Source of the DNA: an uncultured Candidatus Saccharibacteria bacterium
GTDB taxonomy: Bacteria; Patescibacteriota; UBA1384; JAMDBS01; DAOVQR01
Direction: 5' to 3'
NCBI GenBank assembly: GCA_964481135.1
Contig: CAYZSW010000005.1
Location: 28,126-92,125 of the forward strand
Length of the DNA stretch: 64,000 nucleotides
Position 1 is the first letter of the stretch, and every line of letters starts with the position of its first letter. The notes under the pieces were generated by a model. That model ran no database searches, was not told the origin of the DNA, and worked only from the letters and a program-made list of their open reading frames with translations. The position numbers were made by a program, and so were the translations under genes. This document shows, piece by piece, positions 14,231-34,200 of the stretch.

Positions 14231-14239
14231 GTTATAAAA

Positions 14240-14384
14240 TATGAAAGTTAGATCATCTGTTAAGAAAATTTGTAAAGATTGTCAAATTATAACAAGACGC
14301 AAATCAGGCAAATCTGGTAAGTCAAAAAAACCAGTCAAATTTGTAATTTGCAAAAATCCAAAACATAAACAAAGACAAGGATAA
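14240..14384 (+). pseudogene. rpmJ: 50S ribosomal protein L36 with apparent +1 frameshift (extra G near 14280)
   Basis: Frame A: [13 protein letters not shown] then stops after 13 more codons; frame B continues [33 protein letters not shown] (classic bL36 C-terminus); join at gattGGtcaa. Confidence 0.6.
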
Positions 14385-14392
14385 AGGAATTT

Positions 14393-14776: not shown

Positions 14777-14792
14777 AATAATGGAGTAATTA

Positions 14793-15179: not shown

Positions 15180-15182
15180 ATT

Positions 15183-15776: not shown

Positions 15777-15813
15777 TTATAAATAATTAATTAAATACAA
15801 ATAAGGATATAAT

Positions 15814-16608
15814 ATGTTTACATTGCCGGGCACAGAATTAGTAAATATTAAAAAAATTAACGAAAAAGAAAATACCTCGACATTTATTATTGAACCATTG
15901 CTTCCAGGTTATGGTATGACTATTGGTAATTCTTTAAGAAGAGTGTTGCTTTCATCTTTACCTGGATCTGCAATTACATGGGTAAAAATCGCAGGAACAA
16001 CACACGAATTTTCTTCGATACCGGGCGTAAAAGAAGATATTGTTGATATAATTTTGAACTTAAAGGGTTTAAAAGTAAAATTACTTTCAGAAGAAGAAGC
16101 AGTGCTTAAACTTAACGCTAAAGGACCTGGCGTAGTGACAGCAAAAGATTTTTCAAAAAATGCACAAGTAGAGATACCAGATTCAAAATATCATATTGCT
16201 ACATTGGACAAAAATGGTAAACTAAATATTGAAGCAACAATTAAAAATGGCAGAGGTTATGTAACTGTAGAACAAAGAAAAGATGAAAAATTACCACTTG
16301 GGACTATTGCAATAGACAGTATTTTTACTCCAATCAAAAAAGTACATTATGAAGTTGATAACACTCGTGTTGGTGGAATGACTAACTACGATAAATTAAC
16401 TATCAACTTAACGACCGACGGTACAATAAATCCGGATCAAGCTATGCACACAGCAGCAAAAATTCTTACAGAGCATTTTGATATAGTTAAAGCTGTTTTT
16501 ACTGATAAAAAAGCTACCCCAAACACTACTAAAAAAACTAAAGTCAAAAAAGAAACTAGTGCTAAAAAAAGTACTGCCAAAAAAACTAAGAAAGTAAAAA
16601 ATGATTAA
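15814..16608 (+). CDS. rpoA: DNA-directed RNA polymerase alpha subunit, N-terminal domain only with Lys-rich tail
   Basis: alpha-NTD motifs (EPLLPGYGMTIGNSLRRVLLSSLPGSAITWVKI); 264 aa, ends KKTKVKKETSAKKSTAKKTKKVKND; no alpha-CTD. Confidence 0.85.
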   Translation: MFTLPGTELVNIKKINEKENTSTFIIEPLLPGYGMTIGNSLRRVLLSSLPGSAITWVKIAGTTHEFSSIPGVKEDIVDIILNLKGLKVKLLSEEEAVLKLNAKGPGVVTAKDFSKNAQVEIPDSKYHIATLDKNGKLNIEATIKNGRGYVTVEQRKDEKLPLGTIAIDSIFTPIKKVHYEVDNTRVGGMTNYDKLTINLTTDGTINPDQAMHTAAKILTEHFDIVKAVFTDKKATPNTTKKTKVKKETSAKKSTAKKTKKVKND

Positions 16609-17038
16609 AAGAAAGTTAAGTAAAAAAACTAAATATAGAAACATGATGTTACGAAATATGGCAACATCGCTTATATTATACGAACGGATTATTACTACAT
16701 CACCAAAAGCCAAGGAATTAAGAGGTGTTGTTGATAAGGTAATAAATATTGGCAAAAAAAACACACTTGAATCTAGAAGAAAATTATTAGGATACTTAAC
16801 AGACAAAAATGCGGTTAAAAAGATTTTTGAAATATTGGTTCCAAGATATAATGATAGAAATTCTGGATATACACGAATATTTAAAATTTCACCCAGAGTA
16901 GGTGATTCTGCTTCTAGATCAATTATTCAGTTAATTGGTTATAAATCAATTAAAGAAGAAAAAGAGAAAACAAAAGTTACAACTAAAGTAAAATCTAATG
17001 AAGTTGAAAATAAAAACAAAGAGGAAAAGAATGCATAA
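16601..17038 (+). CDS. rplQ: 50S ribosomal protein L17
   Basis: KLSKKTKYRNMMLRNMATSLILYERIITTSPKAKELRGVVDKVI bL17. Confidence 0.9.
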   Translation: MIKRKLSKKTKYRNMMLRNMATSLILYERIITTSPKAKELRGVVDKVINIGKKNTLESRRKLLGYLTDKNAVKKIFEILVPRYNDRNSGYTRIFKISPRVGDSASRSIIQLIGYKSIKEEKEKTKVTTKVKSNEVENKNKEEKNA

Positions 17039-17426
17039 AACTACACTTTACAACAAAGAAATTAAAGAAAATACAACAAAAATTGACGCGAAAAATAAGG
17101 TTTTAGGCAAGCTAGCTGTGCAGGTTGCGGATATTCTGAGAGGCAAGAACCGTGCAGATTTCAGTTATCACCAAATCCCACTGAATAAAGTTATTGTTTA
17201 TAATGTTAAACATATTGCAATAAGTGGAACAAAGTTACACGATAAAAAATACTATCATCATACCGGGTATTTGGGAAATTTAAAAACAGAAGTTTTGGGT
17301 GATTTGATGCAAAAAAATCCTGAAAAAGTTTTTATTCATGCTGTTTCCGGCATGCTTCCAAAAAATCGCTTGCAAGCAAAATTTCTGGCTAATTTAAAGG
17401 TTTATAAAGAAGATATTAAGGATTAA
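17031..17426 (+). CDS. rplM: 50S ribosomal protein L13
   Basis: [10 protein letters not shown]...[25 protein letters not shown] uL13; start ATG 17031 after GAGGAAAAG. Confidence 0.9.
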
Positions 17427-17428
17427 TA

Positions 17429-17836
17429 ATGCAAAAAAAACAAGACAAAACAGAATTTAAGCCAAAAGGTAAATATTTTCAAGCAATTGGCAGAAGAAAA
17501 AGATCTACTGCACTAGTTCGTTTATATAGTGGTAAGGGTACCATTTATATTAATAGTAAACAAATCGAAAAACCACAAGAAATTTATTTGAAACCTCTTA
17601 AGGATACAAATAATTTAACTAAATTTGATATTTCAATAATTGTAAAAGGTGGTGGTAGAATTGGTCAAATAGAGGCAATTCGTTTAGGTATTTCAAGAGC
17701 TTTGCTTAAGTACAATGATCAATTAAAACAAACACTTAAAAAAGAAGGTTATTTAACTCGAGATCCTCGCGAAAAAGAAAGAAAGAAACCAGGTTTAAAA
17801 AGAGCCAGAAAAGCTCCTCAGTGGCAAAAAAGATAA
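17429..17836 (+). CDS. rpsI: 30S ribosomal protein S9
   Basis: ...[20 protein letters not shown]...RKAPQWQKR uS9 C-terminus. Confidence 0.92.
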
Positions 17837-17865
17837 TTTGTTTTTAATAGTTCCTTATATATTGT

Positions 17866-17900
17866 TTAAAAAACCTTCTGGAAATTCCAGAAGGTTTTTT
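17866..17900 (+). terminator. rho-independent terminator after rpsI
   Basis: ccttctgg-aaatt-ccagaagg stem-loop followed by TTTTTT. Confidence 0.7.
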
Positions 17901-17943
17901 GATATAATAGATTTATTGCTAATTAAAATATAAAAGGAAAAAT

Positions 17944-18309
17944 ATGAGTATATCAGAAATCCAAAAAAGAATTAAAATAATCGAAGACTATAAAGAGGAA
18001 AATAAAAAATCTTTAGAAATGATTAAATCAACTTTGGAAAATGATTCAAAATATTCCGAAGTTTTAGAAACAGCAAAAGAAGCCAATAAATTAAAAAAAG
18101 AAATTAAAGATAAGATTATGGGTGAGCCCAATATGGAAGAGTTGTATTGGAAAATTAAAGAAAATCGTGAAGAAATAAAAATTAACAATCAAATTTTAGC
18201 TCAGCAATTATCACAATATTTAAATACGACTAAAACTAATCAAATTGAAGATTCAGAGGGGCAACTTAGGACATTTGAAATTTCTGTTAAATTAAGCAAA
18301 AAAAACTAA
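17944..18309 (+). CDS. hypothetical coiled-coil protein (121 aa)
   Basis: ORF with GGAAAAA SD-like upstream; Lys/Glu-rich helical protein, no recognisable motif. Confidence 0.5.
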   Translation: MSISEIQKRIKIIEDYKEENKKSLEMIKSTLENDSKYSEVLETAKEANKLKKEIKDKIMGEPNMEELYWKIKENREEIKINNQILAQQLSQYLNTTKTNQIEDSEGQLRTFEISVKLSKKN

Positions 18310-18347
18310 ACATTGACATATTTTATTTATGTTCGTATTATTAATTT

Positions 18348-19586
18348 ATGGCAAACAAAGACCGAACTAAAATAAATATTGTTAAAGATACTCAATTTTT
18401 ATTTATTGACATGAATGCTTTTTTTGCTTCTTGTGAACAGCAAACAAATTTTAACCTAAGACATAAACCGGTTGCAATTGCTCCATACAAAGGTAATACA
18501 GGGTGTATTATCTCCCCAAGCTATGAAGCAAAAGCATATGGAGTAAAAACAAGCATGCTTGTTAAAAAGGCAAAAGAAATTTGTCCTAATATTATAATTT
18601 TAGAATCAAATGTATCCATGTATCTCAATATTCACCATGAAATCAAAAAAATACTTTTTTCTTTTTCTCCTTTTGTAAAAATTTTGAGCGTAGATGAAGC
18701 GGTTATTTTTCTTTCCCCGTCGGAACAGAAAACCGAATTAGCTTTTAATATTGCCAGAAAAATTAAAAATGCAATTTATCAAAAAATAGGCAAATGTATG
18801 CGTTCTTCTATTGGGATCGGTCCAAGCATATATTTAGCTAAGCAAGCTTCTGAAATAGAAAAGCCAAATGGTCTACAAGAAATAAAAATCAAAGATATAC
18901 CCAATTATTTAAGTAAAATATCTCTCACTGACTTAAAAGGTATTAATACGCGAATGAAAATTCGTTTTAATAATCTAGGAATATATACCCCACTTGATTT
19001 ATACAATACTCCGGTGCAAAATCTGAGAGAAAAATTAGGTATAGTAGGTGAATATTGGTACCTATTATTAAGAGGAAAAGATATAACCAATTTTAATACT
19101 TGTGAAAAATCAATTGGTCATTCACATGTTTTAGAACCAAAATATCGTAAATGGGATTTTGCATGGTCTGTGTGTCAGAAATTAATTTCTAAAGCAGGAT
19201 ATCGTTTAAGAAAAACAGGTCTTACGGCAGGTGGTGTTTATTTACAAGTAAATTGTTTTAATAAATATAGTTTTCATAAAGCTTTCAAAACTAGAAGCTT
19301 TGCGGACGATTTTGCTTTTAATCGATACATTAAATTTTTATTTCAACAGATAGATAAATCTTATAAACCAATTAGGGTAGCGGTAGGATTATTCAATCTT
19401 AGTAAAAATAATTCTTTTCAAAACGATTTATTTTTAAAAAATTATAAAAACAAATTAATTTATGATATTGTTGATAAGATCAATAATAAATACGGTGCTT
19501 TTACAATTAAAAGTTCATCGATACTTTTGGCAGATGATTCTGCCCCAAATCGGATCTCATTTGGCAGACCAGATAATAATTTTTAA
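18348..19586 (+). CDS. dinB: DNA polymerase IV (Y-family translesion polymerase)
   Basis: FLFIDMNAFFASCEQQ...KPVAIAP...GVKTSMLVKKA...SVDEA UmuC/DinB motifs. Confidence 0.85.
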   Translation: MANKDRTKINIVKDTQFLFIDMNAFFASCEQQTNFNLRHKPVAIAPYKGNTGCIISPSYEAKAYGVKTSMLVKKAKEICPNIIILESNVSMYLNIHHEIKKILFSFSPFVKILSVDEAVIFLSPSEQKTELAFNIARKIKNAIYQKIGKCMRSSIGIGPSIYLAKQASEIEKPNGLQEIKIKDIPNYLSKISLTDLKGINTRMKIRFNNLGIYTPLDLYNTPVQNLREKLGIVGEYWYLLLRGKDITNFNTCEKSIGHSHVLEPKYRKWDFAWSVCQKLISKAGYRLRKTGLTAGGVYLQVNCFNKYSFHKAFKTRSFADDFAFNRYIKFLFQQIDKSYKPIRVAVGLFNLSKNNSFQNDLFLKNYKNKLIYDIVDKINNKYGAFTIKSSSILLADDSAPNRISFGRPDNNF

Positions 19587-19650
19587 ATAAAAATTTGAAT
19601 TTAATAATTCTTAAAGATATAATAATATATAAGATACAGAAAATAAATCA

Positions 19651-19740
19651 ACTACCTCGCAGCAAGCTACGAGGTATAAATTGAAATAATTTATACGAAG
19701 CATGCTTCGAGGAGTTCACCCACTTGTCCGCCTTTGGCGG
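19651..19740. repeat. GC-rich triple-hairpin element at island boundary (REP-like)
   Basis: tacctcg-cagcaagcta-cgaggta; cgaagcatgcttcg perfect palindrome; ccgcc-ttt-ggcgg; shares acctc/gaggt core with REPs at 28.2-29.7 kb. Confidence 0.5.
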
Positions 19741-19767
19741 ATCAAAAATATTAATTATAGGAGATTT

Positions 19768-20085
19768 ATGAAAACCAAAAAATGTGATTGCGAAAAAGAT
19801 TTTGAAAAAGAAATAGAAAAGGAATTTGGTAAAAATTGGGAAGAAAAGTTGGAGAAAAAGTTTGAAAAATGGGGAGATAAATTTGAAAAATACGGGAGTT
19901 GTTGTAATACTCATTCTTCATCAAGTTTCATGGGCGGAGGATTTTACTTTCTGTGTTTCCTTGGTACAGCGATTTATTATATCGGACAAGCACCAGATTT
20001 TTGGATGGGAGTTGTTGGAGTACTCAAAGCCCTTGTCTGGCCAGCAATGTTAATTTATGAAGTATTCACTCGTTTAAATATGTAA
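19768..20085 (+). CDS. small Cys-rich protein with C-terminal TM segment (hypothetical, 105 aa)
   Basis: ATG 19768 after AGGAG SD; MKTKKCDCEKDFEKE...GSCCNTHSSSS...hydrophobic tail; ORF-track start 19702 would run through GC hairpins. Confidence 0.5.
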   Translation: MKTKKCDCEKDFEKEIEKEFGKNWEEKLEKKFEKWGDKFEKYGSCCNTHSSSSFMGGGFYFLCFLGTAIYYIGQAPDFWMGVVGVLKALVWPAMLIYEVFTRLNM

Positions 20086-20144
20086 TAAACCATAAAAAAC
20101 CAATTGTACTAACAAGCATCAAAACAATTAAAACAACAATAACC

Positions 20145-20173
20145 AAAAAGTACACCTCCGAGGTGTACTTTTT
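20145..20173. repeat. perfect palindromic hairpin flanking RAYT copy 1 (left)
   Basis: aaaaagtacacctccgaggtgtacttttt; identical sequence again at 20867-20897. Confidence 0.7.
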
Positions 20174-20189
20174 GTGGTATAATAATTAT

Positions 20190-20864
20190 ATGGTTCAATA
20201 TAGAAAAGATAAATTGGTAAATGGGGAATACTATCATATATTCTCTAGAAGTATTGCTAAATATGTAATTTTTAATAATGATAAAGAATATTTGCGCATG
20301 CTAGATTCTATTAATTTATTGAGATTTATTGATTTTGATTATAAAATGTCAAAATTTAATGAATTAAAAATACAAAAACAAAATGAGATTATCAATATAC
20401 TAAAGACTAACAATAAAACTTTTACCGATATTGTTGCATATTGTATTATGCCTACTCATATTCATTTGATATTAAAACAAAATATTGATAATGGCATTAC
20501 AAAATATATGGCTAAACTTTTAAATAGTTATGCAAAATATTTTAATACTAAACATAAAAGAAAAGGACATCTTTGGACTGATAGATTTAAAAGCGTGCTC
20601 ATTACAAACAATGAGCAAATACTGCATCTTACAAGATATATTCACTTAAACCCTGTTTCTGCTAAATTAGTTAGGTCACCTAAAAAATGGCAGTACTCTT
20701 CATTTTTTGAATACATTAATCCAGATAAAAATAACATCTGCACTTACAAAAACATATTTGACCTAAAGACAGAAGAATATGAAAAATTTGTTTTGAATAG
20801 AATTGATTATCAGCAAAAATTATCACTCATAAAAAATCTGATTATAGATGAATATTCAGGATAA
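20190..20864 (+). CDS. IS200/IS605-like Y1 (HUH) transposase / REP-associated tyrosine transposase (RAYT), copy 1
   Basis: MVQYRKDKLVNGEYYHIFSR...YCIMPTHIHLIL (HuH motif)...GHLWTDRFKSVLI...LTRYIHLNPV; paralog at 28901-29575; start at ATG 20190 (ORF-track GTG 20163 lies in hairpin). Confidence 0.72.
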   Translation: MVQYRKDKLVNGEYYHIFSRSIAKYVIFNNDKEYLRMLDSINLLRFIDFDYKMSKFNELKIQKQNEIINILKTNNKTFTDIVAYCIMPTHIHLILKQNIDNGITKYMAKLLNSYAKYFNTKHKRKGHLWTDRFKSVLITNNEQILHLTRYIHLNPVSAKLVRSPKKWQYSSFFEYINPDKNNICTYKNIFDLKTEEYEKFVLNRIDYQQKLSLIKNLIIDEYSG

Positions 20865-20866
20865 CC

Positions 20867-20897
20867 AAAAAAGTACACCTCCGAGGTGTACTTTTTT
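20867..20897. repeat. perfect palindromic hairpin flanking RAYT copy 1 (right)
   Basis: aaaaaagtacacctccgaggtgtactttttt immediately after RAYT stop. Confidence 0.7.
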
Positions 20898-21161
20898 GGT
20901 TTAGAGGTTGAGATAGGGGAATATAAGGAGTATAATTTGAAGTAGGAAAAGAGGATTAGAATTTGTCATTCTGAGCGAAGCCGAAGAATCTATCACTACA
21001 AATTCTAAATTTACTTTATCCTACAATATTACCTACCAGTATATAGTCAGAAAATAGATTCATAAATATCATATTCTCATTGGTGTCATTCGCATATATT
21101 AGCGTATTAGCATCTTTATCGTTCGAACGAAAGTGAGAACTACCAGATTTCAATGTAGGCA

Positions 21162-21210
21162 AATACAAATACCGGCAATACGCCAATGATTTAGTAAATA
21201 GAGATTTTTA
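21162..21210 (+). repeat. 48-bp direct repeat, copy 1 (partner at 21852-21900)
   Basis: ccggcaatacgccaatgatttagtaaatagagatttttataaaaatgaa vs ctggcaatacgccaacgatttggtaaatagagattttataaaaaatgaa. Confidence 0.65.
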
Positions 21211-21274
21211 TAAAAATGAATATAATAAATAAGGACTCAAAATATCAGAAGAGCAATAATGAAATAAGGAAAAT

Positions 21275-21847
21275 ATGAGTGAAACTATAATATATAACCC
21301 AAACGAATTTAATCCGAATTACATAACAGAACTCTCAAAAAATGCTGAAAGTGTAATTTTTGATAAAATTTTAGAAAAAGCAAAAGATCTAGGAGTTCAA
21401 ACTAGTTCAATTAATTTAGATAAAAGTTATCTATTACAATTAATTAAAAAATATATACCAGATAGATTAGATAAAATTAATAATAAAATAAACGAAAATA
21501 TTGTAGATGCTTCTACTGAACAAATATTAGATAAAATATTAAATGTAGATAAAATTATAAAACACGATAATAAATATATTTTTATTGATATTACCACTGG
21601 AAAAGCAAGTTCCATTATTAATAAGTTGAAAAAAATAAATACAAATTATAAATCTGGAATATTTAATGAATTAAAATGCCATAATTTTATTGTATTAAGA
21701 ATAAATAAAGATGATGAAGAAATTTCAGATGATAAAGTATTAAATATTTTTACACAATTGGAAAATTTAAATACATTTAGTAGTGTAATTGATCTTAAAA
21801 ATACCGAACCAACTATATCTAAAAGATACTTTACTAAATATAAATAA
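21275..21847 (+). CDS. hypothetical protein (190 aa) bracketed by direct repeats
   Basis: ORF with AGGAAAA SD; no recognisable motifs; Asn/Lys/Ile-rich. Confidence 0.5.
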   Translation: MSETIIYNPNEFNPNYITELSKNAESVIFDKILEKAKDLGVQTSSINLDKSYLLQLIKKYIPDRLDKINNKINENIVDASTEQILDKILNVDKIIKHDNKYIFIDITTGKASSIINKLKKINTNYKSGIFNELKCHNFIVLRINKDDEEISDDKVLNIFTQLENLNTFSSVIDLKNTEPTISKRYFTKYK

Positions 21848-21851
21848 AATA

Positions 21852-21900
21852 CTGGCAATACGCCAACGATTTGGTAAATAGAGATTTTATAAAAAATGAA
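21852..21900 (+). repeat. 48-bp direct repeat, copy 2
   Basis: see 21162-21210; 4 mismatches. Confidence 0.65.
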
Positions 21901-21964
21901 AATCCATCTCTGAAAAAATCAACTTGTTAGTTAAAATTTGTAAAAAATTGCGCGATTATTAAAT

Positions 21965-22273
21965 TTGCTAGAAAAATTAAAACAAGCATTAGTAGCATTT
22001 TGTAAAAAAGAAGGTGTAGTTGTAGTTATTGGAGCAGATAATAAAATATCTGTAAAACCAACACAAAGTATTAAATTCCCGTTAAAAGGAACACCAGAGC
22101 GTGATAAATTAGTTAAATTATTAAAGCATATTCACAAATACAATGAAGTAGTAGATTTAAATGTTAGTATGCTTTCAAATGTTTGTGATAATTGGGATAA
22201 AAAAGATATGGAAAAGATAAAAAAATTCCAAACTATAACAAATGATTTTAAATTAAGTATTAGTAAAAAATAA
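21965..22273 (+). CDS. hypothetical protein (102 aa, TTG start)
   Basis: ORF upstream of R-M operon; MLEKLKQALVAFCKKEGVVVVIGADNK...; no motif recognised. Confidence 0.4.
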   Translation: MLEKLKQALVAFCKKEGVVVVIGADNKISVKPTQSIKFPLKGTPERDKLVKLLKHIHKYNEVVDLNVSMLSNVCDNWDKKDMEKIKKFQTITNDFKLSISKK

Positions 22274-22507
22274 CCTGTTAAAAAATGCGGAAATATGGTA
22301 AGATTGCGATATAAAGAAAAGAAAAAAAGGTATAAATATTAAGGACATAAGATGTCAGATGATAAAAAATAACTAAAAGTTTAAAAGAAATTTTAATTAA
22401 TAAATTGTCTTTCAAAGTCTATTCGAGTAAAATAATTATAGAATTGAATAGGAGGAAATATCAATAAATCATATAATAATCAAGTTTTTTATCAAGATGC
22501 TAGAAAC

Positions 22508-23314
22508 ATGAAGGAATTGCCAAATAACTCTGTTCATTTAATTATTACAAGCCCTCCATACTTTAATATTAAAGATTATTCCAAAGATGGCTATCAGTCG
22601 TCTAAAATTTCTAAAAAACAAAAAGGACAAATAGGAGATATTAAAAATTATAAAAACTACATTAAGGAAATGCTCAAAGTATGGAAAGAATGTCAAAGAG
22701 TACTTAAACCAAACGGAAAATTAATAATTAATGTTCCTTTAATGCCTATGCTTAAAAAAAGTCTTAATACTCATTACAATAGACATATATTCGATATAAA
22801 TGCTGCAATTGAACAATCAATATTAGTAAATACTAAATTATACTTATACGACATATATATTTGGAATAGAACAAATACAAGTAAAAAGTTAATGTTTGGT
22901 TCATATCCATATCCTAGAAATTTTTATGCACAAAACACCTGTGAATTTATTACAGTTTATGTAAAAGATGGTAAACCAGATAATAATATATGTAGAACAA
23001 CAAAAGAAAAAAGTAAGTTAAGTGAAAAAGAATGGATAACTTTCACAAAACAAATTTGGGATATACCAATTCCTAATAAAAGTGACGTTGCTTTTGGAAA
23101 GCATTCCGCTATTATGCCAGAAGAAATTGTCAGAAGATGTATTAAATTATTTACTTTTATCGATGATACTGTACTTGATCCGTTTGCAGGATCAGGAACG
23201 ACATTAAAAATTGCAAAAGAATTAAAAAGAAATTATATAGGATATGAAATAATGAGATCATACGAGCATATTATTAAACAAAAATTAATGCAAACCAAGC
23301 AAAAATTATTATAA
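22508..23314 (+). CDS. DNA methyltransferase, beta-class N6-adenine/N4-cytosine (M1); true start probably upstream non-ATG (~22460)
   Basis: motif IV IITSPPY before motif I VLDPFAGSGTT (beta-class order); conserved N-terminal region continues upstream of first ATG. Confidence 0.8.
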   Translation: MKELPNNSVHLIITSPPYFNIKDYSKDGYQSSKISKKQKGQIGDIKNYKNYIKEMLKVWKECQRVLKPNGKLIINVPLMPMLKKSLNTHYNRHIFDINAAIEQSILVNTKLYLYDIYIWNRTNTSKKLMFGSYPYPRNFYAQNTCEFITVYVKDGKPDNNICRTTKEKSKLSEKEWITFTKQIWDIPIPNKSDVAFGKHSAIMPEEIVRRCIKLFTFIDDTVLDPFAGSGTTLKIAKELKRNYIGYEIMRSYEHIIKQKLMQTKQKLL

Positions 23315-23317
23315 ATT

Positions 23318-24106
23318 ATGTTAGATAAAAATAAAGTATACTTAATGGATTGTATAAAATTTTTAAGCAAAATTGACAAGCAGTCAATTGATTTAGCAGT
23401 AATTGACCCACCTTATAACCTCAAAAAAGCAAAATGGGATACTTTTAAAACACAAAATGATTTTCTAGATTTTACATTTTGTTGGTTAGATGCATTAATA
23501 CCTAAACTTAAACAAACTGGTAGTTTATATATTTTTAATACCCCGTTTAATTCTTCTTTTATTTTAAAATACTTACTAGATAAAAAAATGATTTTTCGCA
23601 ATTGGATTACTTGGGATAAGAGAGATGGCTTATCAAATGGAACTAAAAAATATGCAAATGGACAAGAAACAATTTTATTCTTTACTAAATCTCAAAATTA
23701 TACTTTTAATTACGATGAAATTCGTATTCCGTATGAGTCAAAAAGTAGAATTAAACATGCTGAAAAAAAAGGAATTTTAAAAAATGGAAAAAGATGGTTT
23801 CCAAATCCTAAAGGAAAATTATGTTCTGAAGTATGGCATATCTCTAGCGAAAGACACAAAAATAAAATTAACGGTAAAACTCCAAAATTATCTCATTTAA
23901 CGCCTAAACCATTAGATATGATTGAAAGAATTATTACAGCAAGTAGTAATCCAGGTGATTTAATATTAGATTGTTTTGTTGGTAGCGGTACAACAGCGAT
24001 AGCTGCAAAAAAAATAAATAGGAATTTTATTTGCTCTGATAATAATAAATACTATATTGAATTAACCAAAAGGAATTTAAAAAAATATGACAGTTATAAA
24101 AATTAA
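23318..24106 (+). CDS. DNA methyltransferase, beta-class N6-adenine/N4-cytosine (M2)
   Basis: VIDPPYN motif IV; ILDCFVGSGTTAIAA motif I; 3 nt after M1 stop. Confidence 0.82.
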   Translation: MLDKNKVYLMDCIKFLSKIDKQSIDLAVIDPPYNLKKAKWDTFKTQNDFLDFTFCWLDALIPKLKQTGSLYIFNTPFNSSFILKYLLDKKMIFRNWITWDKRDGLSNGTKKYANGQETILFFTKSQNYTFNYDEIRIPYESKSRIKHAEKKGILKNGKRWFPNPKGKLCSEVWHISSERHKNKINGKTPKLSHLTPKPLDMIERIITASSNPGDLILDCFVGSGTTAIAAKKINRNFICSDNNKYYIELTKRNLKKYDSYKN

Positions 24107-25313
24107 TCCTGGCAATAAGGCTTTAGAATTTATTGATTCTAGAATTAGTGATGAAAAATATCGCGGAGTACCATCGTCGGAACATAACAGATACGATATG
24201 ATAAAAATTGTTTCTATTCTTGAATTATTAAATAAATACGCTCCTAATCAGCAGCTTATGAGTATTAGAACAACAGATGTTTCTAAAAGACCAGAAAATG
24301 AATCGAAAGAATATGTTTATGCAAAATTTTGCAATGAAACTAAACAAAAAACAGGAATTGGAACACAAGATGCAATGCGCAAAAATTTATTTGTTGATTT
24401 ACATAGAATGAATTTTATTATTAGATATGATAAAAATAAACAACAAACAGATCCTTTTTCAAAACAACAAGTTAAATTTGTATCGATTAGTAAACAAGGG
24501 TTAAAACTAATTAAGGCAAAAAATTTGCTTGATAAATATTTTATTTTTTCTAAAGGAATTGATCAACTTGTGGGAGGATACATAGATATTATATTAGATA
24601 TTCTAAGAGATAAAGAATATAAAATCGATAAAATTAGTATTTATGAATATATGTTCTTTATTTCTGCAATTAATACAAAATCGAGTTTTAATATAAGTAC
24701 GGAATATGCTGTTAAATTAATCAAACATTACAGAAATCTGACTCCAATTCAAAGAAAATCAGTAATAGAAACATTAAAAGTTACATTAAACCCAAAAAAC
24801 TATGATGGGAATAAAAATAAAAAAAAGGATTTTCATAATTGGCATAACAAAACTGCTCAAATATTTCATTTATTGAATCAAACCGTTTATTTTGAAGTCA
24901 GAGGTGAACAATTAGTACTTAAATCAGGAAAAGACAGTTATGAGACAATTTCTGCAAAATTAGATAGATCACTAAATGAAAAATATCAATATTTTATCAA
25001 TCACAATATTGACAAAAAGCCAGGATTTGAATTGCATCATATTGTACCCATTTCTTGGTCAGAAAACATCCATCATTTTAAAATTCTCGATAAATGGGAA
25101 AATATGTTATATATTGATGGGTTTAGTCATGCAAAAATTACTCAAAATAAAAATAGAAACATTATTCTGCAAATAAAAAATAAAGACTTAAAATTACTAG
25201 ATTACTCCGATAATGAAGTTTATCTACAATATATGAAAAATGTAGTATACCAATACAAACAACAACCGATTCTTAAAAAATATAACAAGGACCTCTTATC
25301 AACTATTAAATAA
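24087..25313 (+). CDS. putative restriction endonuclease with C-terminal HNH-like motif
   Basis: Overlaps M2 by 20 nt (coupled); C-terminus ELHHIVPISWSEN...WENMLYIDGFSHAKIT resembles HNH (HH...N...H); rest unrecognised. Confidence 0.5.
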   Translation: MTVIKINPGNKALEFIDSRISDEKYRGVPSSEHNRYDMIKIVSILELLNKYAPNQQLMSIRTTDVSKRPENESKEYVYAKFCNETKQKTGIGTQDAMRKNLFVDLHRMNFIIRYDKNKQQTDPFSKQQVKFVSISKQGLKLIKAKNLLDKYFIFSKGIDQLVGGYIDIILDILRDKEYKIDKISIYEYMFFISAINTKSSFNISTEYAVKLIKHYRNLTPIQRKSVIETLKVTLNPKNYDGNKNKKKDFHNWHNKTAQIFHLLNQTVYFEVRGEQLVLKSGKDSYETISAKLDRSLNEKYQYFINHNIDKKPGFELHHIVPISWSENIHHFKILDKWENMLYIDGFSHAKITQNKNRNIILQIKNKDLKLLDYSDNEVYLQYMKNVVYQYKQQPILKKYNKDLLSTIK

Positions 25314-25470
25314 AGTAGTTTTTATAAAATGCCAATACTAAGTTGATTAAATGGTTTGTTTATTATTCTTAATTTACTGCGACATACCGGGGTATTGACG
25401 AACGGTGGGCAAATTTAAATAAACTTTATGATCTAACTAACGATGAAATAAAAATTGTGGAAGGGAAAAA

Positions 25471-25833
25471 ATGAATAAAGTAAGTATTGATGAAGAAATA
25501 TCAAATTTAAAATTAAGATTAAGTGAATTAGAAGATATTCATCCTGATTATACTTCCCTAGAACTAAAAGATTTACAAACTAAAACACTAACTACACACG
25601 CTCATTTAGAGAATGCTCTTGATAATAGAATACGTTTAAAAATTTTAGGATTAAGAGAAATAAAAAACTCAGAAAAATGGGACAAAGCTGCTCCAAAATT
25701 ACAACAATTATTAAATCTTTTATCATACAGAAATAAATTAGAAATAGTGAAAAGTTACAATGATTCATCAGATATTTTTATTAGTTCTCTTGGTCGCGTC
25801 AATACATATAGAATTAAATTTGCACATCCATAA
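25471..25833 (+). CDS. small protein ending in R-x4-H (RIKFAH) HEPN-like motif; frame stays open past TAA to 25974
   Basis: ...VNTYRIKFAHP*; same frame after TAA encodes GAKLGEKF...RDLLRSLNEAYEQMDKYFSKIMKDKNY* to 25974. Confidence 0.45.
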   Translation: MNKVSIDEEISNLKLRLSELEDIHPDYTSLELKDLQTKTLTTHAHLENALDNRIRLKILGLREIKNSEKWDKAAPKLQQLLNLLSYRNKLEIVKSYNDSSDIFISSLGRVNTYRIKFAHP

Positions 25834-25980
25834 GGGGCTAAATTAGGAGAAAAATTTAATAATAATACTTGCAAAAATAAACAAAATATTCGGGATTTAC
25901 TAAGATCTCTTAATGAAGCTTATGAGCAAATGGATAAATATTTCAGTAAAATAATGAAAGATAAGAATTATTAAAAAAAT

Positions 25981-26553
25981 ATGACAAACAAAAATAAAAT
26001 CAATAAATTATTTGAATTATTAAACCAAATCCCTCAAAATCAAAGACCAAATTTATTAATTTATCTTGATAATGAATTCATAATTAGTTATAAAGGTATA
26101 TTAAAATCAGCTTATTCAAGATATAAAAATGAAGATGTAAGGAATTATGATTTTAATGAAAGAGGAGATGTTTTAGAATTTTTTACGAATATTGAATACT
26201 TAATTAACAAAATCATAATTGCATATTTAAAAATTGATTATACTAATAATGAAAAAGCAGATGCGTTATTAAATACCTCAGACTTATTTTACAAAGTTAA
26301 ACTTTTAAATGAATGGGGGTTATTTTCAAGTAAAGATACGGAATTATTTTTTTGTTTAAAATCGATAAGAAATGGCTTTGCGCATACTTGGGTAATAGAA
26401 AGTATTAAATATAAAGGAAAAAGTTATAAACAAAATATTAGTAAATTTAATGAAGATGCTGCAATTATATGGAAATTGTTACTAAATATTTATAAAAAAT
26501 ACCAAATAGATATTGATGAAATTATTGAAAAATTAGAATTGAGAAATAAATAA
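25981..26553 (+). CDS. HEPN-motif protein, Abi_2 (AbiD/AbiF)-like candidate abortive-infection RNase
   Basis: all-alpha composition; CLKSIRNGFAHTW matches R-[N]-x-x-A-H HEPN/Abi_2 motif. Confidence 0.5.
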   Translation: MTNKNKINKLFELLNQIPQNQRPNLLIYLDNEFIISYKGILKSAYSRYKNEDVRNYDFNERGDVLEFFTNIEYLINKIIIAYLKIDYTNNEKADALLNTSDLFYKVKLLNEWGLFSSKDTELFFCLKSIRNGFAHTWVIESIKYKGKSYKQNISKFNEDAAIIWKLLLNIYKKYQIDIDEIIEKLELRNK

Positions 26554-26568
26554 CAACCTAACCCAACC

Positions 26569-26613
26569 CAAGCTTTTTTCTTCGACTACGCTCAACACAG
26601 GCAAAAAAGCTTG
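26569..26613 (+). promoter_or_regulatory. 11-bp-stem hairpin between HEPN and OLD genes (possible terminator/attenuator)
   Basis: caagctttttt ...23-nt loop... aaaaaagcttg. Confidence 0.35.
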
Positions 26614-26636
26614 TTGCAAAAGATGTTTATATAGAT

Positions 26637-28091
26637 ATGAAAAACGAAATTAAAACTAAAAGAATATTACATAATGGTAAATCTGAAGATTTAACTTTAA
26701 AAAATCTTGAAAAAATTAATATTTTATTTGGAAAAAATGGTTCAGGAAAAAGTAGTTTTCTAAGAAATTTATATCAAAATAATGACAGTGAATTTCATTT
26801 AGTAATACCGGAAAGAGGTGGAAATATACAACATAATTCAGGTATAGCTGATCAGGAATTTAATCCTAATGAAAGAAAAAATGTAAGAAAACATAATTCT
26901 GATAATAGCTATAGAGAAAGAGCTATATCGCGAACATCGATTATACCAAGTAGCATCGGCCGTAAATTAATGGGCGGCGAAACACCTTTTAAACTAGATA
27001 ATTCTGAAATTATAGAATTATTTAGCATATTATTGCCAGAATTTAAAATTTCTTTTTCGAATCAATCACCATACCATCTAGAGATTCATAAAAACTATGA
27101 TAATAATGAATTAAAAGTAAATAATGTAGATGAATTATCTTCTGGACAAGCAGAAACAATATCTTTAGCCGCTGATATAATTACACAGGGTGTTATATGG
27201 AACAATCAAGATAAAACATTATTAATTGATGAGCCTGATGCTCATTTACATTTAGATTTACAAAACAGATTTTCAATTTTTATATCAGAAATTTCAAAAA
27301 GATTTAATATTCAAATAATTATTGCAACACATAGTCCTGCATTAATTGCTAGTTTATTAAGTTTATCTGATGATATTGGAATATTTTGTCTAGATTTATT
27401 TTCAGAAGAAATTAACGCAGTTAAAAAATCTAATCAAACAATATTTAGTAATCTTTTAAATATTGATTTAGGATTATCTGTTTTGTTAAAAAGGAAAATA
27501 ATAATTTTAGAAGGTAATGATGATTATTTAGTTTGGAATCAAGCTTGCAGATGCCCTAAATTTGATGATATTGCAATAATTCAAGCAAATGGTGATGATA
27601 TTATGCGATATAAAAGAAATGCAGAAAAAATTATTTTATCTGTTTTAGATATAGATAAGCAAGTTGGAATTACCATGAGAGATAAAGACAATAATTCTGG
27701 AAAAAATAATGATAATTCTACTATTTTGCCATTAAAACGTCTTCAGTGTTATAGTTTGGAAAATTTATTTTTAACAAAAGAGGTATTAAATAGTATTAAA
27801 CCAAATATTGATTTTGTATCAGAAATGAATAAATTAAAGATAAAATTAAATAAAAAAGAAAAAAGTGAGTTAGATAATATTATTAATGACAAAAAGGTAA
27901 CAAAAATATCTAAAGAGCTATTAATTAAAATTCATCATAAAATTGACGAACATTATAGTTCAAGAGATTGGCGAATAATTTTAGGAAAATACTTAGGGAA
28001 CAATAAGCCCACAGGAGAGATTTTAGACTTTATTGGAAAAGATATAGTTAACTATATTTGGGATAAAAAAATGACCATACAATCTGAATAG
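26637..28091 (+). CDS. OLD-family ABC-ATPase/Toprim nuclease (class 1 OLD / GajA-like)
   Basis: Walker A FGKNGSGKSSFL; Walker B LLIDEPDAHLH; H-loop ATHSP; Toprim start IIILEGNDDYLV and ANGDD. Confidence 0.72.
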   Translation: MKNEIKTKRILHNGKSEDLTLKNLEKINILFGKNGSGKSSFLRNLYQNNDSEFHLVIPERGGNIQHNSGIADQEFNPNERKNVRKHNSDNSYRERAISRTSIIPSSIGRKLMGGETPFKLDNSEIIELFSILLPEFKISFSNQSPYHLEIHKNYDNNELKVNNVDELSSGQAETISLAADIITQGVIWNNQDKTLLIDEPDAHLHLDLQNRFSIFISEISKRFNIQIIIATHSPALIASLLSLSDDIGIFCLDLFSEEINAVKKSNQTIFSNLLNIDLGLSVLLKRKIIILEGNDDYLVWNQACRCPKFDDIAIIQANGDDIMRYKRNAEKIILSVLDIDKQVGITMRDKDNNSGKNNDNSTILPLKRLQCYSLENLFLTKEVLNSIKPNIDFVSEMNKLKIKLNKKEKSELDNIINDKKVTKISKELLIKIHHKIDEHYSSRDWRIILGKYLGNNKPTGEILDFIGKDIVNYIWDKKMTIQSE

Positions 28092-28248
28092 AAATTAAAA
28101 TAAGGAATCCATAAGGGACGGTTCTGGTTCGATTAGATTTATCATGAGTAATGTCAAAGTACTCACCACCGACTTCCCACACCTTACCGCCCTTTTCATT
28201 ATTTATAAATTCAACTACACCCCACACACCCCACCGACCTACACACCT

Positions 28249-28322
28249 CACCGACCTCGTAGGTCAGAGTAAATTTTACAGGTTCAAGACCTACTCCAAC
28301 CTACGAGGTCAGAGTAAATTGG
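28249..28322 (+). repeat. REP-like palindromic element, copy a (preceded by degenerate caccgac arms from ~28218)
   Basis: caccgacctcgtaggtcagagtaaattttacaggttcaagacctactccaacctacgaggtcagagtaaattgg. Confidence 0.7.
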
Positions 28323-28382
28323 CATCAAAACTAAAATATATCCGGTTGTTAGTATTCAATACGCGTATGGTATAATTAAGAT

Positions 28383-28730
28383 ATGATTCCGTATAAAACA
28401 AAATCTCAAGAAATTCCCGGTACAAATTTAGGAGAAACATACAGAAGTGCTTATTTTAAAAAAGAAAAGATATTTTTTGATTTTTTCTGGAATCATCTAA
28501 AACAAAAATCTCCTAAAGAAAGATTTAAAAGATTAAAATTATTTAAATCTGCAATAGAAGTAATTAAAAATTCTAGAAATAAACCAGAAACTAAGACTAA
28601 TCCAAATAAGAAAACTGAAATATTTTATAGGTTTGCTGGTCTTACTAAAAGTCAGTTATTTATTGTTCAAATTAAAGAAAATAAAAGAAGTAAAAATAAA
28701 TATTTAATGTCTTGTTTTTCTATAAAATAA
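28383..28730 (+). CDS. hypothetical basic protein (115 aa) embedded between REP copies
   Basis: ORF MIPYKTKSQEIPGTNLGETYRSAYFKK...; Lys-rich; no motif. Confidence 0.4.
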   Translation: MIPYKTKSQEIPGTNLGETYRSAYFKKEKIFFDFFWNHLKQKSPKERFKRLKLFKSAIEVIKNSRNKPETKTNPNKKTEIFYRFAGLTKSQLFIVQIKENKRSKNKYLMSCFSIK

Positions 28731-28829
28731 AAAGATCTCCGCCTAAGTGGAGTATGGAAACTCATGGCCGAGAACTTTTCTATAATAATTATTACAAAGA
28801 TTATATTTTTTGTCAATGTTGAAAACTTA

Positions 28830-28906
28830 CACCACGCCGACCTCGTAGGTCAGAGTAAATTTTACAGGTTCAACATCTACTCCGACCTACGAGGTCAAAG
28901 TTAACC
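28830..28906 (+). repeat. REP-like palindromic element, copy b
   Basis: caccacgccgacctcgtaggtcagagtaaattttacaggttcaacatctactccgacctacgaggtcaaagttaacc. Confidence 0.7.
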
Positions 28907-29575
28907 GGCATAATTTTCAATAATTAAACTTTTTATTGCAGACAGCTGTCTTTGATAATCAATTCTATTATTTACAAATTCTTTATACTTTTTTGGATCA
29001 ATCTCTAATATATTTTTATAATTGCATATTTTAGATGCTGTTTTTTCTAGGTATTCTTTATACGAGCTAAATTGCCAATCAAAAGGATTACTTACTACAT
29101 TAGCAGAAACCGGATTAAGATGAATATACCTAGTCAGATGTAATAGTTGTTCATCGTCTTGAACTCTGACGCTTTTAAATCGGCTAGACCAAAGTGGTCC
29201 AGATCGATGATGTTTTGTGTTAAAATATTTTGAGTAGCTATTAGAAATTTTTGCGATATATTTAATAATTCCTAGATTTTTATTTTGTCGGATTATTAGA
29301 TGAAAATGAGTCGGCATGATGCAATAGGCAACTATATCAACCAATGTTTTGTTTTCAATACGCAATTTTTCCAATTCAATAAATTGATTTTTATCACTTA
29401 ATTTTTTGAAATGTGAAAATTGATAATTAAAGTTTTTAAATCTTAATATGTCAATGAGTTCAATCATTCTTTGACATTCTTCACTGGAACTAAATATCAC
29501 AAAACCCGCAATACTGCGATTGTAAATATGATAACACTCTCCATTTACAAGCTCATCTTTTCTATACTGCACCAT
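28901..29575 (-). CDS. IS200/IS605-like Y1 (HUH) transposase / RAYT, copy 2
   Basis: MVQYRKDELVNGECYHIYNR...YCIMPTHFHLII...GPLWSSRFKSVRV...LTRYIHLNPV; ~60% identical to copy 1. Confidence 0.72.
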   Translation of the reverse strand: MVQYRKDELVNGECYHIYNRSIAGFVIFSSSEECQRMIELIDILRFKNFNYQFSHFKKLSDKNQFIELEKLRIENKTLVDIVAYCIMPTHFHLIIRQNKNLGIIKYIAKISNSYSKYFNTKHHRSGPLWSSRFKSVRVQDDEQLLHLTRYIHLNPVSANVVSNPFDWQFSSYKEYLEKTASKICNYKNILEIDPKKYKEFVNNRIDYQRQLSAIKSLIIENYAG

Positions 29576-29592
29576 ACTCCAATTATATCATA

Positions 29593-29671
29593 CACCACAC
29601 CGACCTCGTAGGTCAGAGTAATTTTTACAGGTTCAAGACCTACTCCGACCTACGAGGTCAGAGTAAATTGG
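29593..29671 (+). repeat. REP-like palindromic element, copy c
   Basis: caccacaccgacctcgtaggtcagagtaatttttacaggttcaagacctactccgacctacgaggtcagagtaaattgg. Confidence 0.7.
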
Positions 29672-29730
29672 TTAAAATAATAAATATGATATAATATAAA
29701 TATAATATTAGTATTAATAAAAGGAGGAAT

Positions 29731-29928
29731 ATGAAAGCTCTAAAATGGATTGCCTTGATTTTGATAATCGTAGGTGGTCTTAACTGGGGTTTAGTTGGAC
29801 TCTTTAATTTTGATCTAGTTGCAACAATTTTTGGAGACATGTCTACACTTTCAAGAATTGTTTATAGTTTAGTTGGTTTAAGTGCAATTTATATTGCATT
29901 TGTAAGTCCAAGCATGATGAAGGACTAA
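29731..29928 (+). CDS. DUF378-like small membrane protein
   Basis: AGGAGG SD; MKALKWIALILIIVGGLNWGLVGLFNFDLVATIFG... two TM helices. Confidence 0.65.
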   Translation: MKALKWIALILIIVGGLNWGLVGLFNFDLVATIFGDMSTLSRIVYSLVGLSAIYIAFVSPSMMKD

Positions 29929-29999: not shown

Positions 30000-30986
30000 G
30001 TGCAAAAAACAGTAAATAATATTTGTGATATAATAAAATCAAATATTAAACATTTAGGATTTTTTATGTCGGAAATTAAAAAATATAATCCAGAAAATAA
30101 TCAAATCAAGCAAGATGATAAAAATTTAGGCAAAAATAAAATTACTAGAAGAGAATTTTTGAAAAAATCAGGTCTTGCTCTTTTAGGATTAACTTTGTTT
30201 GGTACTAAAGCTTTAGGAAAAGCCGAGAAACAGCCAGATAAGAAATTATCAGATCAGCCAGAAGCTAAACTAGAGCCAGAAAAGCCCAAAGTTGAAGAAA
30301 AAGAAAACAAACTAGAAATTGATGAAAACTATAAAGATAAGATTGATGAGAAAGTTAAAAAAGAAATCAATAATATTTTTAAAACAAATAATTTTGATGA
30401 TTTAATAAAAATATGTGAAAAAGTACAAGGATATTCTGAATCAGTAAAAAAATATGCAAAAGAATATAATGTAGACGAAAGATATCTTTATGCCATAATT
30501 TTTGTTGAATCCAAGGGCGACCCTTCTGCTTACAATGAAAATTCCGGAGCATTTGGTTTGTGTCAGTTTACTCAAGACACAGCACAGCAATTTAATCTTT
30601 CCGACAGAGGAAATGAAGATGATTCAATAAGAGCAACAGCCAAATATTTGCAGTATTATAAAAATTTTATTGGTCGAGATGATTTGAATATTACTTCGTT
30701 TAATATTGGCTACGGTAGATTGCAAGAATTACTGGAGAAATTTACCGATAAAAAAATTCAACAATTTCCTAAAGAATTAGTAATTTCAGAAGAACTGTCT
30801 TATCCAAAAATTTATTTTGAGGCAACCAAAGAAGCTCACCCAAACACTAATTTATATATGAATAAAGAGCTTGGTGAAGAGGGAAAGAATTATTATTTTA
30901 AAATATTAGCAGCAATAGAAGTGTTAAAAATGCATCGCAAAGATCCTGAAAATTTCAAAAGATTAAGCCAAGAAAATTTTAAGTAG
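30000..30986 (+). CDS. lytic transglycosylase (SLT domain) with twin-arginine signal peptide
   Basis: TRREFLKKSGLALLGL Tat motif; ESKGDPSAYNENSGAFGLCQFTQDTA SLT catalytic region; alternative ATG start at 30066. Confidence 0.7.
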   Translation: MQKTVNNICDIIKSNIKHLGFFMSEIKKYNPENNQIKQDDKNLGKNKITRREFLKKSGLALLGLTLFGTKALGKAEKQPDKKLSDQPEAKLEPEKPKVEEKENKLEIDENYKDKIDEKVKKEINNIFKTNNFDDLIKICEKVQGYSESVKKYAKEYNVDERYLYAIIFVESKGDPSAYNENSGAFGLCQFTQDTAQQFNLSDRGNEDDSIRATAKYLQYYKNFIGRDDLNITSFNIGYGRLQELLEKFTDKKIQQFPKELVISEELSYPKIYFEATKEAHPNTNLYMNKELGEEGKNYYFKILAAIEVLKMHRKDPENFKRLSQENFK

Positions 30987-33269: not shown

Positions 33270-33477
33270 AATTTAATAAATTTTCCAATTATAAAAATAA
33301 ATGATATAATGTATATAACAATTAAAGGAGGGTAGTGAAAAAATTTTTATATAATTTACTTATGAGATATGCAACAAATTTTGCATTTTTTGTATTTGTT
33401 CAAATATCTTTTTTTAGAAATATTAATATTAATGTCATTAAATGTGATTATTTTAGATAACAAGAGGAAAGGTCTTT

Positions 33478-34149: not shown

Positions 34150-34200
34150 AAAATAAATTTAGTAATTAATTAGTGAAACTAATTAATTCTAGGAGGTTTT

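Follow-up and report, generated by a model that had tools for sequence, protein, structure and literature searches.

Defense islands, which Makarova reportedly described in 2011, are one of several known kinds of locus that resemble the region analyzed here. The region lies 3' of dinB in a 64-kb stretch of bacterial DNA (the window), and it holds a predicted restriction-modification (R-M) operon, a gene for an OLD-like protein, and two genes for Y1 transposases that are flanked by short hairpins. Defense islands in bacteria of the candidate phyla radiation (CPR) have been catalogued, and these genomes have dense defense repertoires that are dominated by R-M (PMC12259885). For the Y1 genes, the closest described systems pair a REP-associated tyrosine transposase (RAYT) with repetitive extragenic palindromes (REPs); these RAYT/REP (REPIN) systems include TnpA_REP of Escherichia coli (PDB 4ER8; PMC2817692, PMC3116915, PMC5581495, PMC3479197). 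E. coli TnpA_REP binds and cleaves REPs (PMC3479197), and RAYT groups 1 and 4 are also low in repeat counts (PMC5581495). Other systems to compare are the IS200/IS605 insertion sequences (such as the TnpA enzymes of IS200 and IS608), integrative genomic islands, and the OLD family.

We consider it probable that the region, from about 20,175-20,190 to 29,684, is an accessory patchwork, located 3' of a conserved small gene at a site prone to recombination, rather than one mobile element. It is a defense-gene hotspot with RAYT-like modules of a Y1 gene and its hairpins, and both are of known kinds. As in defense islands, R-M and an OLD-like nuclease gene are clustered with orphan, decayed, and mobile-element genes in low-GC DNA, and other defense cargo is present beside the same anchor gene in a related species. 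Unlike those islands, the region is small, contains just two confident defense families, and lacks an integrase or tRNA gene. It also differs from integrative genomic islands in that its end repeats are of different types, with no integrase or tRNA gene at the ends. Profile searches (Pfam, NCBIfam, and PADLOC) identified no integrase among the open reading frames (ORFs) of the region, no tRNA gene lies in or next to it (the nearest is at 48.9 kb), and an Rfam scan found no RNA family in it.

The Y1 proteins are RAYT-like in several ways. Each is a single-domain HUH/Y1 protein whose HUH motif (THxHL), catalytic tyrosine (RYIHLNP), and C-terminal DWxFSS align to TnpA_REP, and each gene has its own short GC-rich palindromes on both sides. 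One of the two repeat types (REP A) resembles a REPIN in that it is built as a doublet and folds into a long hairpin. The two paralogues have distinct repeat types, the neighbors of the wider family are housekeeping genes, and the genes are of a single-copy type without recent duplicates (the paralogues are 57% identical to one another). However, the scores for the NCBIfam model REP_Tyr_transpos (NF047646), which is the best-scoring model, are 68.5 and 69.3 bits, below its cutoff of 80, and the proteins are about 60 amino acids (aa) longer than the 165-residue chain of 4ER8. The repeats number two to four copies in 64 kb, as compared to dozens to hundreds for RAYT groups 2 and 3; they flank the genes in direct orientation, whereas classic RAYT genes have inverted flanks; and the host is a CPR bacterium. 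None of the matches listed in our literature search combined RAYT/REP terms with Patescibacteria.

The likeness to IS200/IS605 elements lies in the architecture, with a unit of about 0.75-0.85 kb in which a subterminal hairpin, a Y1 gene, and a similar hairpin follow each other in the same orientation, and in the matches of both proteins to Pfam Y1_Tnp (2e-10 and 6.6e-10). In contrast to those elements, there are no multiple near-identical copies, and the proteins carry additional sequence at both ends (about 70 aa at the N terminus, plus an extension at the C terminus). The NCBIfam model transpos_IS200 gave just E = 0.009.

Extent of the region and comparison with relatives

A preliminary description of this DNA had placed the left boundary of an island at 19640, at a triple hairpin just past dinB (18348-19586; IMS and IMS_C domains). 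These GC-rich hairpins (19653-19676, 19696-19709, and about 19727-19741) are real, with a DNA fold z of -7.3, but they do not mark the edge. In the sister locus L030, whose DinB is 81% identical, homology to the window covers 18067-19624 (82% identity) and resumes at 19741, where it runs into a small gene, so that dinB is followed by the small gene without hairpins. Because the homology skips exactly 19625-19740, the hairpin block (19625-19741, in the spacer between dinB and the small gene) is a separate indel of about 100 nucleotides (nt) that lies outside the island. The small gene (19768-20085, + strand) has a good ribosome-binding site and encodes a 105-aa membrane protein. Since the L030 alignment continues into it, it is conserved backbone, that is, a left anchor and not cargo. 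Its homologues come after dinB-helicase or helicase in L036, L038, and L042, and a boundary at 19640 would enclose this conserved gene. Furthermore, L042 has a hairpin in the orthologous position 3' of its small gene, and the first copy of a repeat that we call hairpin B (20144-20174) matches it, flanks included. From the conserved gene and this match, we place the start of the variable DNA at about 20,175-20,190, or about 550 nt later than 19640.

On the right, the preliminary description had put the edge at the third copy of REP A (copy c, 29592-29684, + strand), and the relatives agree. Homology to L039 and L041, which have the closest relatives of the DUF378 gene, begins at 29683, where this copy ends. 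Judging from these alignments, the right edge is 29,684 and the variable stretch is about 9.5 kb. The DUF378 gene itself (29731-29928, + strand; Pfam, 1.6e-25) is the conserved right flank. REP-like hairpins do not bound the island in the sense first proposed, as the repeats at the two ends differ in type and come from two separate Y1 units.

Other relatives were less informative about the edges. The closest relative of the DUF378 gene (83% identical) gives no empty site because its context differs (YARHG, DUF378, oxidoreductase). In L029, whose DinB is 55% identical, rbfA comes directly after dinB (10252-10645), whereas the window has about 19 kb between the two genes, with rbfA at about 38.4 kb. 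Thus, the whole stretch from dinB to rbfA is not conserved at the family level. We rejected widening the island to 38.4 kb on this basis, as L029 is too distant. For DinB homologues at 50-57% identity, the contig either had lost synteny with the window or stopped immediately past dinB. When DinB was used to scan the GTDB species genomes, no relative exceeded 40% identity, and those found (in Planctomycetota, Chthonomonadales, and others) gave no usable synteny.

Within these limits, the preliminary description was right that the DNA is accessory, variable, and rich in defense-type genes. First, the region is a GC trough. The window is AT-rich (about 29% GC), and the island has 25.8% GC as compared to 29.5% for the rest of the window. 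The lowest-GC 7.2-kb stretch of the window begins at 21001, and just 2.9% of the 1-kb segments outside the island are as low in GC as the island mean.

Second, none of the loci that we recovered from relatives contains a homologue of the cargo, apart from distant methyltransferase similarity.

Third, a related species has a different set of genes at the same anchor. L042 (ERZ27252294 k141_219150) is from the same study; its tuf-rpsJ segment is 75.8% identical to the window's, and its small gene is 83% identical. After this small gene, at 10472-20318, L042 has a different and larger defense cluster, which includes an N6_N4 methyltransferase fused to NA-iREase1/Mrr_cat, DUF3800, two PD-(D/E)XK genes, DUF4268, type I hsdM, RhuM, and hsdS. 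No Y1 gene is present within the 20 kb of L042 that we retrieved. Three fragments of the region do match L042, namely 20864-20992 (90% identity), 21150-21232 (88%), and 21968-22320 (96.6% over 353 nt). These shared fragments are 88-97% identical, as compared to about 76% for core genes.

The first of these fragments is a junction element (20864-20992, + strand) that comprises hairpin B, a promoter-like TTGAGA-17-TATAAT, and the motif GTCATTCTGAGCGAAGCCGAAGAATC, which is itself a small hairpin. It corresponds to 12372-12501 of L042 (90% identity), and part of it is repeated three times there. An intergenic element of about 65 nt (20928-20992), which ends in the GTCATTCTGAGCGAAGCCGAAGAATC motif with the promoter-like sequence before it, occurs once in the window and at 12440-12505, 13300-13365, and 18421-18453 in L042, just upstream of several cargo genes. 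It has no match in Rfam. These shared intergenic pieces look like cassette-junction or 5'-leader modules at which cargo is exchanged.

It is very improbable that the region is instead ancestral core genome, without recent acquisition, and that the differences from relatives reflect nothing but evolutionary distance. The region is fixed and identical across population samples, and the available relatives are distant and rearranged, which would fit. However, this would not account for the GC trough, the defense-type content, the presence of a truncated gene, a nonsense-interrupted ORF, and orphan ORFs, or the high identity of the L042 fragments relative to core genes.

If the region is a patchwork, as we propose, it would consist of five independent modules. 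The first would be B - Y1#1 - B, in which a RAYT-like Y1 gene lies between its own two hairpins. The second would include the junction repeats with their terminator and promoter features, the remnant of a PD-(D/E)XK gene, and an orphan ORF bracketed by 57-nt repeats. In the third, two methyltransferases and a restriction enzyme (M1-M2-R) are predicted to methylate the cell's own DNA and to cut unmethylated phage DNA. The fourth would have two ORFs with Rx4H motifs, one of them disrupted, and then the OLD-family-like ATPase-Toprim gene, whose product may be a nuclease-based anti-phage effector. The fifth would be REP A - orf115 - REP A - Y1#2 - REP A. Cargo would be gained and replaced by horizontal transfer and recombination. 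This turnover is suggested, indirectly, by the low GC content, the absence of the cargo from relatives, the different set in L042, and the shared fragments that are more similar than the core. The Y1 units would be self-contained passengers and would not carry the region.

Several observations weigh against this proposal. We did not find a true empty-site sister: L030 ends inside the small gene, and the other relatives are rearranged. Therefore, the case that the DNA was acquired depends on its composition and on comparisons with loci that are not orthologous. Within this population, every contig is 100% identical, and thus we saw no presence/absence polymorphism. There are only about four confident defense genes (M1, M2, R, and the OLD-like gene) from two families, which falls short of a published rule for defense islands (at least five defense genes, at least three families, and gaps of at most 10 genes; PMC12259885). 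Finally, hairpin B is shaped like an ordinary bidirectional terminator, as are other terminators in the window, and was flagged by our terminator scan, and the hairpin in L042 that is orthologous to it stands without a Y1 gene.

Y1 transposases and their hairpins

Both Y1#1 (20190-20864, + strand, with its true start at the ATG at 20190) and Y1#2 (28901-29575, - strand) encode proteins of 224 aa. MPTH(I/F)HLI and LTRYIHLNPV are conserved in both copies. In the alignment with 4ER8, which is the sole sequence match in PDB, the HUH and Tyr motifs fall at H59-H61 and Y115. We found no near-identical copy of either gene elsewhere in the window or, within clusters at 90% identity, in other contexts; each cluster is restricted to one population and locus. 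Nor did we find evidence of recent transposition; the population contigs are all identical.

Hairpin B is an identical 29-nt repeat (AAAAAGTACACCTCCGAGGTGTACTTTTT) at 20145-20173 and 20868-20896, laid out as A5-GTACACCTC-C-GAGGTGTAC-T5. The terminator-like first copy is 17 nt upstream of Y1#1 and the second (20863-20901) is 4 nt past its stop, at -46/-17 and +4/+32 relative to the gene and in direct orientation. REP A is 93 nt long and consists of two GACCT-NNN-AGGTC mini-hairpins, which jointly form one long imperfect stem. Its copies, which are 83-90% alike (none are expected by chance), are located upstream of orf115 (copy a, 28243-28335), between orf115 and Y1#2 (copy b, 28829-28921, which overlaps the 3' end of Y1#2), and 16 nt upstream of Y1#2 (copy c); copies a and b are given on the + strand, as for copy c. 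Between copies a and b, orf115 (28383-28730, + strand) encodes 115 aa and has no family match. Neither repeat occurs elsewhere in the window; the counts in 64 kb are two for type B and three to four for type A, all local. Hairpin B and REP A are unrelated types, one for each Y1 gene.

According to the preliminary description, all of the hairpins share an acctc...gaggt core. This is true of hairpin B, of REP A, whose long stem carries the two pentamers as its outer part, and of the first of the left hairpins; the second and third left hairpins do not have it. ACCTC(N0-12)GAGGT has three matches in 64 kb, versus 0.11 expected, and all of them are within 19.6-20.9 kb. The first left hairpin also resembles an arm of REP A (CTACGAGGT...TAAATT is common to both). 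Ahead of REP A copy a, a C-rich tract (28150-28260) contains five partial 18-nt repeats (28176-28257; consensus approximately CACACCNCACCGACCT) that run into it, and the same 18-mer precedes every copy of REP A. A 74-aa ORF over this tract (28151-28375) is probably spurious.

The Y1 family is large, with 254 clusters at E ≤ 1e-30 and about 8,000 at E ≤ 1e-10. We surveyed 80 metagenome loci that encode Y1 homologues (34-69% identity) and compared the 150 nt before the start of each gene to the 150 nt after its stop. At the 58 testable loci, 86% of the Y1 homologues had matching repeats in their two flanks, as compared to 2.7% of 183 control ORFs from the same loci (Mann-Whitney p = 4e-29). These repeats take the form of small GC-rich hairpins, with one located about 25-70 nt ahead of the start codon and the other 0-40 nt past the stop codon, and 42 of 49 have an ACCY...RGGT core. 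Both direct and inverted orientations occur across the family; in the window, both units have direct repeats. Hairpin copies beyond these flanking pairs are rare (about five in 389 kb of Y1 loci).

Because this pairing is family-wide, our preferred interpretation is that each Y1 unit has hairpins of its own, which are the cognate DNA of its enzyme. They are unlike the abundant REPs of classical systems (PMC5581495). By analogy with E. coli TnpA_REP and its REPs, the enzymes probably act on single-stranded DNA, each binding and cutting the hairpin at its own flanks. The idea that the hairpins are substrates of the Y1 transposases thus gains from the family comparison, but not the idea that they are substrates that mark an island. 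For type B, a substrate role is less certain, given its terminator-like form and the L042 hairpin without a Y1 gene.

The closest foreign homologue of Y1#1 (69% identity), in L046 (1-900; Ga0209254_10045122), has a 96-nt direct repeat on each side. Each repeat contains two GTACACCTACGAGGTGTAC hairpins, with a doublet form like that of REP A and a core like that of hairpin B.

We also considered whether the hairpins are mere intrinsic terminators or generic palindromes of an AT-rich genome, so that their adjacency to Y1 genes is meaningless. Besides the terminator-scan result and the L042 hairpin, the A5-stem-T5 form of hairpin B resembles the terminators after rpsI, DUF378, and other genes, and the DUF378 gene also ends in a CACCC...GGGTG stem. 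But this explanation seems unlikely. Two-sided matched repeats are 30-fold more common at Y1 genes than at control ORFs from the same loci, the type of hairpin changes with the Y1 paralogue, and the 93-nt doublet of REP A is not terminator-like.

In 509 kb around the 80 Y1 homologues, there was no homologue of the island's cargo, and the neighbors were tRNA synthetases, penicillin-binding proteins, glycosyltransferases, and similar housekeeping genes, with no enrichment of R-M or defense genes. We therefore rejected a link between the Y1 family and defense genes, and the suggestion that the Y1 genes are the island's own vehicle does not hold up.

A composite transposon, in which the inverted Y1 units are the insertion sequences at its ends and all 9.5 kb move together, was suggested by the positions of Y1#1 (+ strand) and Y1#2 (- strand) at the ends, with cargo between them and a 263-nt inverted repeat at 72% identity. 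HUH Y1 enzymes such as those of IS200/IS605 work on a single strand, and the ends of two inverted units are not on the same strand. This conflict, and end repeats of different types, led us to reject the composite transposon, which we view as highly unlikely. Also, the Y1 proteins are only 57% identical, their hairpin types are unrelated, fragments from the interior are present in L042 without a Y1 gene in the 20 kb retrieved, and we found no second copy of the whole unit from Y1#1 to Y1#2.

Alternatively, the Y1 enzymes might mobilize any DNA between two cognate hairpins, as in IS200/IS605 elements or palindrome-associated transposable elements (PATE) acting in trans, so that the island was built cassette by cassette. 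Where the window has B - Y1#1 - B, L042 has B' - (methyltransferase-restriction enzyme plus a 110-aa ORF) - B'', with homologous outer flanks, and the REP A copies enclose orf115 as well as Y1#2. The direct repeats at both Y1 genes are like the left and right ends of IS200/IS605. We nevertheless think that this is unlikely, and the wider Y1 family does not support it. Third copies around a neighboring gene are rare (about 3 of 47 other Y1 loci have an extra copy, or about 5 copies in 389 kb), the flanking repeats are inverted rather than direct in many loci, and the R-M and OLD modules have no flanking hairpins. In L042, the hairpins are diverged, with no Y1 gene in the retrieved 20 kb. Homologous recombination at the shared junction repeats would give the same pattern.

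A more specific form of this idea is that a large CPR clade of RAYT-like Y1 enzymes of about 220 aa uses low-copy CACCY-loop-RGGTG hairpins as the ends of exchangeable cassettes, so that any gene between two cognate hairpins could be excised and swapped as single-stranded DNA. The methyltransferase-restriction enzyme pair of L042, or orf115 here, would fit. We give this little credence as well. If true, it would amount to integron-like shuffling of defense genes at fixed hotspots in streamlined genomes.

Defense genes and degraded genes

The operon that we predict to be a type II R-M system (22508-25313, + strand) comprises M1 (22508-23314), M2 (23318-24106), and R (24087-25313), which abut or overlap (R overlaps M2). 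M1 and M2 match Pfam N6_N4_Mtase (1.8e-48 and 7.9e-61), and R matches PADLOC REase_II (2.4e-130). Homologues of R on Helicobacter suis plasmids are annotated as type II R and are beside a methyltransferase. From these matches, the assignment is secure. That two methyltransferases accompany one nuclease suggests that the recognition site is asymmetric (type IIS-like). R has an HH...N...H pattern near its C terminus (ELHHIVP...ENMLYIDGFSHAKI), which suggests an HNH-type active site.

Downstream, a gene at 26637-28091 (+ strand) encodes a 484-aa protein that the preliminary description called an OLD nuclease. Like the single-gene class 1 OLD, AriA/AriB of PARIS, the retron Eco8 effector, and GajA of Gabija, it has an N-terminal ABC-type ATPase domain and a C-terminal alignment to the Toprim region. 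The ATPase is clear, with matches to AAA_21 and AAA_15. The Toprim part is covered by PADLOC AriAB (7e-18, residues 160-436), by ATPase-Toprim_I-B, and by the NCBIfam model for the retron Eco8 effector (residues 194-419), but all of these OLD-type matches are below curated cutoffs, and Pfam OLD-like_TOPRIM reached only E = 0.13. There are also PDB matches to the ATPases PtuA and AriA, and the sequence contains the Toprim-like motifs ILEGNDD and RDKD. It differs from the described family members in being short, in scoring below thresholds, and in lacking a helicase, a retron, or a separate AriB partner. Overall, an OLD-family-like ATPase-Toprim protein is reasonably supported. The PADLOC search that the preliminary description had suggested thus recovered both the restriction enzyme and the AriAB match. 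An AlphaFold model made without an alignment was unusable (pLDDT of 34), and a tblastn search of plasmids with the gene gave one match in E. coli (25% identity), which stands alone with uninformative neighbors.

Two independent assemblies (ERZ27252296 and JGI 3300033170) end contigs at 27636-27644, within the OLD-like gene. The sequence there is unique in the window, and the breaks may reflect a drop in coverage or a strain variant.

Between the R-M operon and the OLD-like gene are two ORFs that the preliminary description called HEPN-motif proteins. The Rx4H motif is present in both, but the profile evidence is below threshold for one and missing for the other. The 190-aa ORF (25981-26553, + strand; RNGFAH) is HEPN-like, with a weak match to the Pfam HEPN family pEK499_p136 (E = 0.0027; 17.9 bits versus a cutoff of 26.6), and tblastn against plasmids found no homologue of it. 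The 120-aa ORF (25471-25833, + strand) has no match in Pfam, NCBIfam, or PADLOC, even in its read-through form. It stops at an in-frame TAA (25831-25833) right after its motif (RIKFAHP), while this frame continues without another stop for 46 more codons, to 25974 (open frame 25471-25974), so it is probably disrupted. As the region of the stop is identical in independent assemblies, the TAA probably reflects a true nonsense mutation rather than an error in sequencing, and the ORF is probably a decaying gene.

Two other pieces of the region lie between Y1#1 and the R-M operon. The orphan ORF orf190a (21275-21847, 190 aa, + strand) has a GC content of 19.5% and is bracketed by 57-nt direct repeats (21167-21223 and 21847-21903, 88% alike) to form a unit at 21167-21903; L042 has one copy of the repeat. 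Like orf115, it could not be assigned to a family by Pfam, NCBIfam, or PADLOC. Next is a 5'-truncated, PD-(D/E)XK-like remnant (21965-22320, + strand, with a 102-aa ORF at 21965-22273). Its nucleotide sequence is 96.6% identical to the 3' part of 14022-14690 of L042, where the gene is complete (222 aa).

Source organism, neighboring genes, and significance

The nearest named homologues of DinB are from metagenome-assembled genomes of Candidatus Berkelbacteria or other Patescibacteria, and exact copies of the window sequence are confined to one set of related metagenome samples. Based on these matches, the source genome appears to be a Berkelbacteria-like member of the CPR (Patescibacteria). 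To the left of the region, a ribosomal-protein operon (up to rpsI) is followed by a 121-aa ORF (17944-18309) and dinB. To the right, the DUF378 gene is followed by an SLT transglycosylase gene (30000-30986; Pfam) and, beyond it, more envelope-type genes. The gene list of the preliminary description was essentially correct; profile searches identified the R-M genes, the Y1 pair, DUF378, and SLT. Farther to the right, two adjacent genes with MliC domains share a 90-nt segment (33470-33560 and 34194-34283, 82% identical), which points to a local tandem gene duplication. The GC content rises to about 40% at 35500-37500, coinciding with a 655-aa gene with a CarboxypepD_reg domain (- strand).

As a defense locus, the region is one more small hotspot in a streamlined CPR genome. 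This is useful for annotation and is not surprising, because CPR genomes are known for dense defense repertoires dominated by R-M (PMC12259885). Of broader interest is the widespread clade of Y1 proteins of about 220 aa. Among the members recovered from groundwater and other metagenomes, the genes almost always have a private pair of CACCY...RGGTG hairpins that appear not to have spread across the genome. This clade is intermediate between the classical RAYT/REPIN systems and IS200-type insertion sequences, and it could help to show how Y1 transposases become domesticated.

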